Shown one piece after another: positions 12,260-39,513 of a DNA stretch of 50,049 nucleotides (positions are counted from its first letter, which is position 1; every line of letters begins with the position of its first letter). A program made the translations under genes and the position numbers. This stretch comes from a virus (Duplodnaviria; Caudoviricetes), in the IMG/VR virus record IMGVR_UViG_3300045912_000109, positions 1 to 50,049 of that record; one strand, given 5' to 3'. The notes under the pieces are model-generated. The model was given only the letters and a program-made list of their open reading frames with translations, did not search any database and was not told the origin of the DNA.

Positions 12260-12776
12260 CGCAAGCCACCAGCACCAGCACCAAGGGAACAACGTGCCAG
12301 CACTAGGCCAGCGGGAACCAGCACCAAGATCAGAAACAGGCAAGCGGATCACCACCAAGGGAACCAACAACAAGGAATCCCTTTTTTCCAGCAGACACAC
12401 CAACCCACCACACCACCCATACCCCCCGGAGCCGGGAGGCTGCCAACGCTATACCCCCACCCAACGAAAAAAACCAACGAAAAAAACCCGCGAAAAAACC
12501 AGAGAAAAAACCCTTCCAAAACCACCCCCAAAGACTACTTCAAAAACCACCCTAAAAACCACCCCTAGAGACCACTCCTAAAGACCGCTCAGCAAGGAAA
12601 GCCTTACGAACCTCTGCTAGAGCTACTCTGCGGTTTATCTTTACGCGGGTGGGGGGAGTATCTTCATGCAGATACAGTAGGCGGTAGAATCTTTTTTGGT
12701 GGTGGTGGGGTGGTATTTTGTGTGGTGTTGTGTTTTGTGTGTGTGGGGTGGGGTTGTTTTGGTGTTGTGGTTATGG
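12260..12776. other. Non-coding low-complexity region with strand-skew switch (A/C-rich, then G/T-rich)
   Basis: AAAACCACCC-type runs to ~12590, then GGTGGTGGGG/TGTGTTTTG runs from ~12690. Confidence 0.8.
12631..12659 (-). repeat. Degenerate type I-E-like CRISPR repeat
   Basis: Minus strand ACTCCCCCCACCCGCGTAAAGATAAACCG: intact ATAAACCG handle, stem broken by GGG>AAA. Confidence 0.55.
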
Positions 12777-12867
12777 CGGCTCATCCCCACGATGGTGGGG
12801 AACGCGGCAGGCTCCGGGCTGCCAGTCCATGACCTGCGCGGTCCATCCCCACGATGGTGGGGAGAGC
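12777..12867 (-). CRISPR. Cas-less type I-E-like mini-array (2 repeats, 1 spacer)
   Basis: Minus strand GCTCTCCCCACCATCGTGGGGATGGACCG, 33-nt spacer CGCAGGTCATGGACTGGCAGCCCGGAGCCTGCC, GCGTTCCCCACCATCGTGGGGATGAGCCG. 29-nt repeats with CCCCAC/GTGGGG stem and 8-nt handle, as in I-E repeats. Confidence 0.88.
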
Positions 12868-12875
12868 GCAATGGC

Positions 12876-12904
12876 ACTTTCGCTGAAATTTTTGTTTTCG
12901 TCAA
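12876..12904 (-). promoter_or_regulatory. Promoter for the mini-array
   Basis: Minus strand TTGACG-17 nt-GAAAGT, predicted start 1-3 nt before the first repeat; A-rich upstream tract. Confidence 0.6.
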
Positions 12905-12982
12905 GAGATTTTTTTGATTTTTTTTCACTATCGTTTCCGATAGTTGGGTTGTGTGGGGTTTTGAAAAGCGGGGTGGGTGGTG

Positions 12983-13180
12983 TTATTGGGTTAGCTTTTT
13001 TCGGGCTTCTTTGAGGATATTGACACGCCTCTCGGCTGCCCGGTAGTTCTTGATTGCGCGTTGCAGTTTTTTTCGGGCTTTGCATTTCTTCCATTGGGCG
13101 CGGCGTATGAGGGAATCCAATCCCAACAGCAGATAAATGTCCGGCGTTTGTTTCTGTTGTGGGGATGAGGGGGTGTTCAT
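12983..13180 (-). CDS. Small basic hypothetical protein
   Basis: ATG overlaps the MTase stop (ATGA); MNTPSSPQQK... Confidence 0.5.
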   Translation of the reverse strand: MNTPSSPQQKQTPDIYLLLGLDSLIRRAQWKKCKARKKLQRAIKNYRAAERRVNILKEARKKLTQ

Positions 13181-13860
13181 TCGTTTGGGAAACAAAAACT
13201 TTGCTGCGCTGTTTCCCGATCAATCCGCTCGCAAGCTGCTTTGAAGTAGTCTTTGTCGATTTCGCAGGCGGTTAGGTGGAGTCGTGCATAGTGGCAGGCG
13301 ATAGCGATGGAGCCGCTGCCCATGTGGGTGTCGAGGATCGTCTGACCCGGCTTGGCGTAGTTTGCCAGCAGCCATGAGTAGAGCTTAACTGGCTTTTGCG
13401 TTGGGTGGATGCGATTTTCCCCCATAGGACGACATGCGTATTTTTTGACAGGGCTTTTGAAACTCGTCCACGCAAGTTCCGCTGCTGCTAAAGAAAACTT
13501 GTGCGGCTGCTGTTTGTCCCATATCAGCCAGCACGGGGAGTTTAGCGGCATCATTTCGATGAAGTGGTTTGCACCCCACACGATTTGATTTTTTGAAACG
13601 CGCTGGAGTTCGGTAAAGTATTTTTGATCTGGTGGCTTAGAGTCCCAATCTTTTTTTGCCTGCTTCTGTCTTACAGGATTTGCCGCCATTCCGATCCCAT
13701 AAGGCGGATCAATAATCGCCAGATCGAAGTGTTTGTCAGGATATTCTGCCATGAGTTCCATGCAGTCCATACAACGGATGTCCAGAAATTCCCGGACAAA
13801 TCGATTGACCGGATGCTTGCCAGCGTCCACGTTGGCTATTGATTGCGTTTCTTGCTTCAT
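13177..13860 (-). CDS. DNA N6-adenine/N4-cytosine methyltransferase (beta class)
   Basis: DLAIIDPPY, HPTQKP, LDTHMGSGS, CEID. Confidence 0.92.
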   Translation of the reverse strand: MKQETQSIANVDAGKHPVNRFVREFLDIRCMDCMELMAEYPDKHFDLAIIDPPYGIGMAANPVRQKQAKKDWDSKPPDQKYFTELQRVSKNQIVWGANHFIEMMPLNSPCWLIWDKQQPHKFSLAAAELAWTSFKSPVKKYACRPMGENRIHPTQKPVKLYSWLLANYAKPGQTILDTHMGSGSIAIACHYARLHLTACEIDKDYFKAACERIDRETAQQSFCFPNE

Positions 13861-13899
13861 TGTTTGTCCTCCGGCTGTGAGTCCCGTTTGGCGTTCAAA
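13791..13899 (+). repeat. Degenerate attC-like site A
   Basis: CCCGGAC-AAATC-GATTGACC...GGC-GTTCAAA; interior shares ~35 bp with site C. Confidence 0.5.
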
Positions 13900-38661: not shown

Positions 38662-38662
38662 T

Positions 38663-39127
38663 ATGGACAACTCAGCAACAACTCCCCGCATTGTTCCGGT
38701 TACTATTCCCGATGATTGGTGCCCGAAAGGAAGTTGGGCGGAAATCTTCAACGATTTCCAGCTTCGTTTTTTGGCTGGGGCTGGCGTGTTTGTTCCCGGA
38801 TTTGGGGCGGTGACGCCCGCCACGATTGCTCAGTTGCAGGCTGATATTCTCGCTCTCCAGAACCAAGTTACTTCCCTCACCAAAGCATACAGAAGTGGTT
38901 CGGGGACTCTTACCCCATCGACTGCAACGCAGACTGTCCCGATTACTTTTGGAACTCCAATGCCCACATCCAACTACGATGTTGGGGTTATGATCTTCAC
39001 GAATGGGGGCACACATGCGGCTCAGTCTTGGCACTTGGATACTGCGAAGGCCACCACAGGATTTACTTTGAGATTTAACGGAACCACCAGCTACAACAGC
39101 TTCGAGTGGTGGGTTCGTGAACGGTAA
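38663..39127 (+). CDS. Short tail appendage protein
   Basis: Short coiled coil plus ITFGTPMP..NY.V...TTGFTL...WW C-terminal domain. Confidence 0.6.
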   Translation: MDNSATTPRIVPVTIPDDWCPKGSWAEIFNDFQLRFLAGAGVFVPGFGAVTPATIAQLQADILALQNQVTSLTKAYRSGSGTLTPSTATQTVPITFGTPMPTSNYDVGVMIFTNGGTHAAQSWHLDTAKATTGFTLRFNGTTSYNSFEWWVRER

Positions 39128-39156
39128 AAGAAGCTGACAAAGAAAGAACAAACACT

Positions 39157-39315
39157 ATGGTCAAAGGAAGCCCAATCAAACAATCGAGCGGAGGCTCTGC
39201 CACAAAGGGTAAAATCTCCACTCAAATGTCGAACTGCAACCACAAGTGGACTGCCCACACGAAGTCCGGGAAAGGAAAGTTTTCCCCACCATCGTGGGGA
39301 TGGACCGTGAAGTGA
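39157..39315 (+). CDS. 52-aa basic ORF ending across CRISPR repeat A (not in ORF track)
   Basis: A/C-rich leader, MVKGSPIKQSSGGSATKGK...FSPPSWGWTVK*. Confidence 0.5.
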   Translation: MVKGSPIKQSSGGSATKGKISTQMSNCNHKWTAHTKSGKGKFSPPSWGWTVK

Positions 39316-39400
39316 AATCCAAACACGCGATGCCCAAAAGTTTTCCCCACCATCGTGGGGATGGACCGTAAGATGAAAACTAAACACGCGATGCCCAAAA
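39279..39400 (+). CRISPR. Cas-less type I-E-like mini-array 2
   Basis: Two identical 29-nt repeats GTTTTCCCCACCATCGTGGGGATGGACCG (39279-39307, 39340-39368), period 61; the 32-mers following them are 27/32 identical. Confidence 0.88.
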
Positions 39401-39486
39401 AAATTTCCGGCAAAAAAGGAGCGAAAAAAATGTCTCCTCGCCAAATGGCGAAAGCCGGAATGAAGAAGTCCTCGAAGCGATACTGA
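39373..39486 (+). CDS. 37-aa very basic peptide between CRISPR repeats (not in ORF track)
   Basis: MKTKHAMPKKISGKKGAKKMSPRQMAKAGMKKSSKRY*. Confidence 0.55.
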   Translation: MKTKHAMPKKISGKKGAKKMSPRQMAKAGMKKSSKRY

Positions 39487-39513
39487 TTTCTCCACTTACG
39501 TGGGGATGAACCG
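39485..39513 (+). repeat. Divergent type I-E-like CRISPR repeat C
   Basis: GATTTCTCCACTTACGTGGGGATGAACCG: stem retained (one G-U), handle ATGAACCG, ends 2 nt before the next ATG. Confidence 0.8.

Follow-up and report, generated by a model that had tools for sequence, protein, structure and literature searches.

Two orphan type I-E-like mini-arrays in a hot-spring and microbial-mat phage, one of them a strain-specific insertion beside an allele of its own spacer

The stretch of DNA analyzed here (the window) is a complete IMG/VR virus record of 50,049 bases (IMGVR_UViG_3300045912_000109; Duplodnaviria, Caudoviricetes). It carries two short arrays of type I-E-like CRISPR repeats, referred to as locus 1 (minus strand) and locus 2 (plus strand), and both are orphan arrays on a phage with one spacer of canonical length each, in agreement with a preliminary description of this DNA. 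In each locus, two repeats (R1 and R2) flank the spacer, and R2 is followed by a long segment and a divergent terminal repeat (R’). The comparison with sibling strains of the phage concerns locus 2, where the long segment begins with a native protospacer-like sequence, P. The features of locus 2 are as follows.

39157 to 39315, plus strand: small conserved gene, 52 amino acids; the last 11 codons and the stop (39313 to 39315, within the spacer) come from the inserted array
39277 to 39279, plus strand: AAG, directly before P in the array-less allele and thus in the position of a protospacer-adjacent motif (PAM); its G is the first base of R1
39279 to 39307, plus strand: R1, 29 nt, identical to R2
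39308 to 39339, plus strand: spacer, 32 nt, an allele of 39369 to 39400
39340 to 39368, plus strand: R2; R1, spacer and R2 minus one base are the 89-nt strain-specific insertion
39369 to 39400, plus strand: P, native protospacer-like sequence, the first 32 nt of the long unit
39369 to 39484, plus strand: long segment, 116 nt of native intergenic DNA
39430 to 39486, plus strand: putative 18-codon open reading frame (ORF), its ATG placed 7 nt after AAGGAG (39417 to 39422) and its stop codon lying across the start of R’
39485 to 39513, plus strand: R’, matching the repeat at 23 of 29 positions and ending 2 nt before the ATG of the next gene
39516 to 40445, plus strand: downstream tail-module gene, 309 amino acids, used as a synteny anchor

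Locus 2 and its array-less alleles

Contigs of four other runs were compared with the window on 38,000 to 41,000; those of runs X3 and X7 span locus 2, and runs X8 and X10 are without a spanning contig. The sibling evidence consists of assembled contigs and therefore speaks for presence only, and the differences between runs are known as far as they are listed, there being 13 more. In run X7, position 39278 is followed immediately by 39368 on a contig of 13.4 kb (depth 33). In run X3, whose sample also gave the probable source run of the window, a contig of 14.8 kb (depth 53) passes from 39280 to 39374 with AAAG in between. Elsewhere the two contigs agree with the window at about 99%; both are without R1, the spacer and R2 (89 nt) and retain the 116-nt segment and R’. 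The R1-spacer-R2 part of locus 2 is a strain-specific insertion of 89 nt, and because it is missing from siblings that are about 99% alike, the 116-nt segment and R’ are native phage DNA. R’ is a conserved solitary repeat: it stands alone in the array-less strains of X3 and X7 and 116 nt from R2 in the window strain, and it folds as a 7-bp hairpin (−9.7 kcal/mol) that is kept while its loop varies, being TTAC in the window and CTGT in run X7, with stem and handle unchanged.

The array-less allele reads ...GGAAAG and then TAAG..., with AAG directly before P. The insertion lies exactly between this AAG and P, and it has the form repeat (28 nt), spacer (33 nt), repeat (28 nt), placed at AA/G. In I-E systems of the E. 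coli type, AAG is the canonical PAM, whose G ends up as the final base of the repeat when a spacer is acquired. The spacer agrees with P at 27 of 32 positions, the 19 PAM-distal bases being identical, and the 61-nt unit as a whole is repeated at 92% (repeat family D12). Of the sibling alleles, that of X3 departs from P at positions 4 and 5 and is matched by the spacer at 29 of 32 positions, and that of X7, which is also preceded by AAG, shows no difference from P among those listed. On these alignments the spacer is an allele of the adjacent native sequence P, and not a foreign sequence. The positions that vary among the three alleles (2, 4, 5, 11 and 13) all lie in the PAM-proximal 13 nt, for which the chance is 1287/201376 = 0.006 by our own arithmetic. 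PAM-proximal mismatches allow escape from I-E targeting. The change at position 2 converts the stop of the small gene from TAA to TGA, so that a stop is kept. R1 and R2 are identical at 29 of 29 positions, although the 32-mers that follow them differ at five sites; the chance that none of five differences falls within the repeat is (32/61)^5 = 0.04. The spacer thus matches a sibling allele, while the copy of the carrier itself follows a repeat end.

The state of this site in more distant phages was also considered. In six related phages (terminase about 50% identical), a small gene of 50 to 55 codons lies between the same two tail-module genes; it is 35 to 38% identical to that of the window and stops at the same point, and it is followed by a palindrome of the phage family. 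In the array-less siblings the small gene ends ...KSGKGK-TAA, whereas its reading frame in the window strain continues into R1 for 11 codons. The array-less allele is the older state, into which R1-spacer-R2 was inserted, because the syntenic small gene of the six relatives ends at this same point. Three of the six relatives have an inserted HNH gene here, and the intergenic spot that locus 2 occupies is one where selfish elements insert repeatedly, a hot spot. The preliminary description had suggested that the same spacing be looked for in relatives; none of 40 related phage records, 10 of which are at least 90% complete, has any I-E-like repeat.

Some further observations concern this site. 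The HNH-type genes of the relatives have 222 to 237 codons (at about 13090 to 13800 in L280, 19970 to 20640 in L286 and 2370 to 3080 in L291), and their label comes from reading of the motif. The palindrome of the relatives is the variant TTATCG-N4-CGATAA, which sits between the small gene and the next gene, the position of locus 2 in the window. On the left flank of locus 2, another AAG is present at 39244 to 39246, and a stretch of 33 bases that begins with its G reaches exactly to R1 (39244 to 39278). This flank is therefore shaped like a second canonical protospacer abutting P, which may be chance (about 3%). A hidden degenerate third repeat in the long segment was considered and rejected, as the 29 nt after P match at about 10 of 29 positions, which is the chance level. 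For the 309-residue tail-module protein downstream, no homologue above 50% identity is found. The spacer of locus 2 and its core have no exact match in viral_contigs, blastn against the ‘phages’ set gives matches at chance level (E ≥ 3), and local blast of both spacers and both long segments against the collected loci gives nothing below E = 0.1 besides the window itself.

Repeat type, locus 1 and genome context

Locus 1 lies on the minus strand and is built in the same way.

12839 to 12867, minus strand: R1, 29 nt, 27 of 29 positions identical to the repeat of locus 2
12806 to 12838, minus strand: spacer, 33 nt, rich in G+C
12777 to 12805, minus strand: R2, 25 of 29 positions identical, with the handle ATGAGCCG in place of ATGGACCG
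12660 to 12776, minus strand: long segment, 117 nt, about 85% A+C, unstructured when folded alone
12631 to 12659, minus strand: R’, very probably a decayed repeat (18 of 29), with the 3’ part GATAAACCG retained and the stem broken

The layout that the preliminary description had claimed to be shared is confirmed base by base, locus 1 being R-33-R-117-R’ and locus 2 being R-32-R-116-R’. Its statement that the two long segments are unrelated also holds, as their global alignment score is −16, compared with −13.6 ± 5.3 for shuffles. The repeat core occurs four times in the window at up to two mismatches, and none is expected (100 shuffles). With the repeat of locus 2 as the reference, the matches are 27/29 and 25/29 for R1 and R2 of locus 1, 23/29 for R’ of locus 2 and 18/29 for R’ of locus 1. 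The repeat length of 29 nt and the start-to-start spacing of the repeats (61 nt in locus 2, 62 nt in locus 1) are as in type I-E. The stem-loop CCCCAC/GTGGGG and the 8-nt 3’ part ATGRACCG are present in the four canonical repeats and in R’ of locus 2; by the E. coli Cas6e rule, this 8-nt part of the repeat becomes the 5’ handle of the CRISPR RNA (crRNA). Both arrays are co-oriented with the neighboring genes; transcription is therefore expected and read-through is possible. A strong promoter-like site was not found directly upstream of either array. Rfam has no family for the window at gathering scores, nor for either locus at E ≤ 1.

In two cellular genomes, arrays with similar repeats are found near Cas6e genes. 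In genome G256, the repeat is identical at 26 of 29 positions, and the array has at least 61 units and lies 3 to 4 kb from a PF08798 (Cas6e) match (E = 2e-37); in genome G001, the repeat is identical at 25 of 29 positions, and the array has 32 units and lies 3 to 4 kb from such a match (E = 9e-42). The generic I-E repeat pattern matches in many phyla, and the CATC loop is in none of the matches listed. Comparison of 2162 spacers from the collected arrays with the window gives matches at chance level only. In the four runs X3, X7, X8 and X10, repeat-like contigs of 31 to 34 nt fall on 39212 to 39413, with summed depths of 80 to 1228, when the phage itself has depths of about 2 to 53; the depth of these short contigs exceeds that of the phage in the same run by a factor of 2.4 to about 150. 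This excess fits a host CRISPR array, abundant in the same mats, whose repeat is this one or one very like it.

In locus 1 the long segment contains 51 A, 48 C, 6 G and 12 T and folds at −1.4 kcal/mol, no better than shuffles, in keeping with the earlier remark that it is rich in A and C and unstructured. The long segment of locus 2 is structured (−24.6 kcal/mol, z = −2.0). The doubt expressed earlier about cleavage at R’ of locus 1 was well placed: its broken stem gives 0 kcal/mol and no hairpin, and capture by Cas6e at this point is unlikely. We take this R’ to be very probably a decayed repeat, because a match of 18 of 29 is rare by three measures. Besides the true repeats and their palindromic reverse reads, a single 29-mer among about 100,000 positions in the window matches as well; a local first-order Markov model puts the probability of at least 18 matches at 6e-5 per position; and when the 146-nt stretch made up of the long segment and R’ is shuffled, such a match arises in 3 of 20,000 cases. 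Locus 1 is read as an older array of the same kind as locus 2 that is decaying, because R1 and R2 differ at four positions (25/29), the terminal repeat is without a hairpin and the spacer, which is G+C-rich and unlike the phage, is without a known target. Locus 1 sits in a variable region, without counterpart in the relatives, that lies downstream of several methyltransferase genes, and its flank has no match in metagenome_contigs.

Two candidate features of the long units were rejected. ORFs that run from the AUG of the R2 handle through the long units (41 codons in locus 2, 47 in locus 1) are explained by the T-poor composition, and pairing of the A/C-rich RNA of locus 1 with a G/U-rich stretch downstream is no better than in shuffles (z = −1.46). 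The surroundings of locus 1 show several further features. The stretch 12400 to 12580 is A/C-rich on the plus strand, with tandem repeats of 12, 25 and 37 nt (families D11, D14 and D17), and faces the A/C-rich segment of locus 1 on the opposite strand; it might contain origin iterons or be a boundary of converging transcripts. On the minus strand, 13177 to 16566 holds several adjacent genes with similar 5’ ends (families D3, D6 and D18). At least the first of these is a DNA methyltransferase, and the ORF 14304 to 15098 matches methylase-like stretches in other viral loci, so that the group may be a battery of anti-restriction methylases. The palindrome TATCG-N4-CGATA has 31 copies in the window, mostly intergenic, compared with 0.66 expected (for example at 7265 to 7278, 12929 to 12942, 24296 to 24309 and 42534 to 42547), and locus 1 has one copy about 60 nt upstream of it; the palindrome probably serves the whole phage family as a regulatory hairpin or as a site for protein binding.

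The genome as a whole is that of a phage with genes for a DnaB-like helicase, a replication initiator, a large terminase, DNA methyltransferases and tail-fibre proteins; no tRNA gene is found in it, and none of the three Cas families that were searched (Cas6e, PF08798; Cas7e, PF09344; Cas1, PF01867) has a match in the complete record. The two ends share identical 127 bases (1 to 127 and 49923 to 50049; family D5), and an ORF that starts at 43809 continues across the ends to 1071, being whole (about 2,390 codons) only when the ends are joined; the genome is therefore circular, or circularly permuted in the assembly, and the record is a circular assembly. The metagenomes that contain this phage are hot-spring or microbial-mat runs. 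Close phage relatives were not found by megablast, relatives were not found by single-protein searches of viral_contigs, and tblastn of the window ORFs against viral loci with I-E repeats gave no relatives either. Several longer terminase homologues of the phage family (P0047, P0048, P0071 to P0073 and P0111) have precomputed matches to PF13403, PF14890, PF05203, PF05204 and PF14528, which we take to be Hint/intein and homing-endonuclease families; this would mean terminase inteins.

Possible roles of the arrays

The reading that we favor, with moderate confidence, is that locus 2 is a mini-array used as a weapon against array-less sibling phages by means of the host Cascade, locus 1 being its older kin. 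In this mechanism the phage relies on the Cas proteins of the host. Host Cas6e would cut the read-through transcript of the tail operon at R1, R2 and probably R’. The first guide would be a normal 61-nt crRNA that carries the spacer; the second would begin with the R2 handle and continue through P into more of the native sequence, its 3’ end being set by the R’ hairpin (giving a 145-nt species) or by trimming. Both guides would match array-less siblings, in which the AAG PAM precedes the target, and the second would match every insertion-less sibling, because its sequence is that of the phage itself. The copy in the carrier would be protected, its PAM having been replaced by the end of the repeat, as in the logic of homing elements, where the insertion destroys its own target site. 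The expected outcome is competition between phage strains, a heterotypic superinfection exclusion. The insertion could have originated when the host adaptation machinery captured PAM-cut phage DNA, or by recombination with an array of the host in which a spacer from this site was already present.

Published work offers precedents for several of these steps. I-E Cascade accepts longer spacers, and Cas3 cleavage needs just an R-loop of wild-type size (PMC5009729, PMC6859484). An I-E guide with an unprocessed 40-nt tail is made from a prophage-borne array (10.1101/2024.10.29.618823), and virus mini-arrays of one or two spacers are described that target closely related co-occurring viruses near the array (PMC6858448).

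Several points weigh against this interpretation. AAG is the PAM of the E. coli-type system and may not be that of the host. An allele that matches the spacer perfectly is not observed in the sibling contigs, and the array-less state is found in 2/2 other runs with spanning contigs, so that the insertion has not swept. The second guide is without a repeat 32 nt downstream and may not assemble normally. The exact repeat is not among the matches listed for genome_contigs, its exact core has no match in metagenome_contigs, and it is absent from 401 genomes of the phylum of G001, where G256 alone matches, with two mismatches in the loop. In other viral I-E mini-arrays, a spacer that resembles the downstream flank is not seen, the best match being 13 of 32 among 17 spacers in 13 small clusters. 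For the spacer of locus 1, no target is found: there is no exact match in viral_contigs, the best blastn match in ‘phages’ has E = 4 and the collected loci contain none. The equal spacing of 116 and 117 nt is also not accounted for by an interviral role.

In both loci the long unit is exactly 84 nt longer than the adjacent spacer. Were R’ of locus 1 free to lie at any distance of 30 to 300 nt downstream, a spacing within 1 nt of that of locus 2 would have a chance of about 1%, by our own arithmetic and post hoc. Among the repeat-like matches downstream of other I-E repeat clusters, 2 of 244 are at 115 to 117 nt, and others are at 32, 93, 154 nt and so on. The shared 84 nt are either a coincidence or a length constraint. 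Locus 2 could also be a CRISPR-based homing-type, or gene-drive-like, allele caught at its birth, with phage DNA cut at AA/G during host adaptation and joined to host repeats, a possibility that we regard as tentative and on balance rather improbable. A possible route would be integration into the leader-proximal repeat, followed by repeat-repeat recombination that excises the unit and carries along the newest spacer of the host from the same phage site. The guide would then match every insertion-less sibling, up to 116 nt and as far as the listed differences go, and the carrier would lose its own PAM. On this view the shared 84 nt would be a real requirement, the guide being made up of complete Cas7/Cas11 steps that end at a Cas6e hairpin.

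The preliminary description had proposed instead that each locus combines a weapon and a decoy, the short unit giving a normal guide and the long unit an over-long crRNA mimic that could soak up Cas7. In numbers, the R2-long-R’ unit would be processed into a crRNA of about 145 nt, which would take up about 14 extra Cas7 and 7 extra Cas11 and so deplete Cascade. The 84 extra nucleotides of both loci are 14 × 6 and 7 × 12, and 6 and 12 nt are the periods of Cas7 and Cse2 in E. coli (PMC5009729). RacrIF1, an RNA anti-CRISPR (Racr), forms a filament of Cas6f and eight or nine Cas7f on an RNA of 70 to 76 nt (PMC10651486), which is a published precedent for a long RNA next to a repeat hairpin that binds extra Cas7. 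The unstructured long segment of locus 1 and the hairpin of R’ in locus 2, kept between strains despite the change of its loop, also suit such a role. The attraction of the decoy nevertheless comes mainly from the coincidence of lengths, and the account is unlikely in our judgment. In locus 2 the 116-nt segment and R’ are native, predate the array and are present in siblings without canonical repeats; the segment starts with the spacer allele, is structured (z = −2.0) and contains AAGGAG and the 18-codon ORF. In locus 1 the unit begins with the variant handle ATGAGCCG and ends with an R’ that has no hairpin (0 kcal/mol) for Cas6e. The two long units share their length alone, none of the 40 related phages has such repeats, the spacing of 116/117 nt is not enriched after other I-E repeat clusters, and the longest test spacer found in the published work is 57 nt (PMC6859484). 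Of the earlier interpretation, the pair of orphan I-E-like arrays with a canonical spacer each is supported; that the two loci have in common a long unit made to serve as a decoy is not. Sequestration of Cas7 is possible, particularly for R’ of locus 2.

Both loci could also be non-functional scars of recombination between the phage and a host array, or of mis-integration, that are kept by drift. The decay of locus 1, with its four differences between R1 and R2 and its dead terminal repeat, is what such a history would leave, and the array-less allele in 2/2 other runs with spanning contigs, the lack of arrays in every relative and the failure to find an external target for either spacer point the same way. 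We consider this unlikely, as the repeats of locus 2 are perfect, the differences between its spacer and the native copy cluster in the seed-proximal part and both arrays are co-oriented with the surrounding genes, so that transcription is expected.

It is quite improbable that the functional element is the solitary R’ of locus 2, acting as a Racr or as a Cas6e-dependent hairpin for processing or translation control, with the R-spacer-R part and locus 1 as by-products of exchange with host arrays. R’ does occur alone in array-less strains, the three substitutions between strains all fall in its 4-nt loop and leave stem and handle unchanged, its hairpin is stable at −9.7 kcal/mol and it lies 2 nt before an ATG, where the relatives have their own palindrome; solitary repeat units are moreover described as widespread in viral genomes (PMC10651486). 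This explanation does not suit the perfect identity of R1 and R2 in locus 2, and the kinship of spacer and P together with the AAG junction indicates a directed product and not a random by-product; a promoter for R’ is also not identified. Regulatory RNAs of the Cracr type, which would turn host Cascade into a repressor of its own cas promoter or of a safeguarding toxin, are very improbable here: I-E Cracr arrays with two or three spacer-like units exist in phages and prophages, and the units of one such array target variants of one system (10.1101/2024.10.29.618823), a multiplexing that the two variant 32-mers of locus 2 resemble, but the spacers here have the full length of 32 to 33 nt, compared with units of 24 and 21 nt in the I-E example, and the spacer of locus 2 is an allele of phage DNA and not of a cas promoter.

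Comparison with known systems

The arrays described here are of a known kind, the phage mini-CRISPR array; what is unusual is that the origin of one of them can be proposed at base resolution, together with its targets in co-occurring siblings. Mini-arrays of phages, like solitary repeats, were known before, and their origin, as well as the location of their targets next to the array, had been left open; the origin of the proximity of target and array is called unclear in the work on the Sulfolobus viruses (PMC6858448). Here, alleles with and without the array are both seen in one habitat, at base resolution. If the interviral reading of locus 2 is true, it would show concretely how phage mini-arrays can arise, give a natural example of a phage that turns its own sequence into a guide against its siblings and supply a natural test case for very long I-E guides.

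The closest likeness is with the Sulfolobus portogloboviruses SPV1 and SPV2 (PMC6858448), in which the arrays have one or two spacers and host-type repeats, with no cas genes on the virus, and in which the spacers match close co-occurring strains near the array, the copy of the carrier being protected. Unlike in those viruses, the repeat here is a bacterial type I-E repeat on a tailed phage, and the array sits exactly at the junction of PAM and protospacer, with native DNA in the place of the next spacer. No host-like leader was recognized here, and a pre-existing solitary repeat is present 116 nt downstream.

A second comparison is with the anti-CRISPR RNAs. The R’ of locus 2, a lone intergenic hairpin in array-less strains with a long RNA upstream of a Cas6-type hairpin, resembles RacrIF1 and the solitary repeat units (PMC10651486). 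Unlike RacrIF1, which belongs to type I-F, the RNA of the window strain would add the 5’ handle of R2 and a sequence that matches siblings, and its Cas binding is putative. The Cracr arrays of phages (10.1101/2024.10.29.618823) are likewise small multi-unit arrays that hijack the host I-E Cascade, and they include a terminal unit with an unprocessed 3’ tail (CracrIE2, with a tail of 40 nt). Their units in the I-E example, of 24 and 21 nt, match cas promoters, whereas the spacers here have 32 to 33 nt and that of locus 2 matches phage DNA. As a separate observation, a 381-kb viral contig (L008) carries at 6225 to 6450 five degenerate I-E-like repeats with gaps of about 13 to 24 nt, and this array is closer to the published Cracr or multi-Racr arrays than to a CRISPR array.

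Finally, the long units can be compared with the extended-spacer Cascade complexes of E. coli and S. thermophilus, in which one Cas7 is added per 6 nt and one Cse2 per 12 nt (PMC5009729, PMC6859484); the 84 nt by which both long units exceed their spacers divide by both numbers. In those engineered complexes the spacers reach up to 57 nt, whereas the units of the present phage are natural and have 116 to 117 nt.

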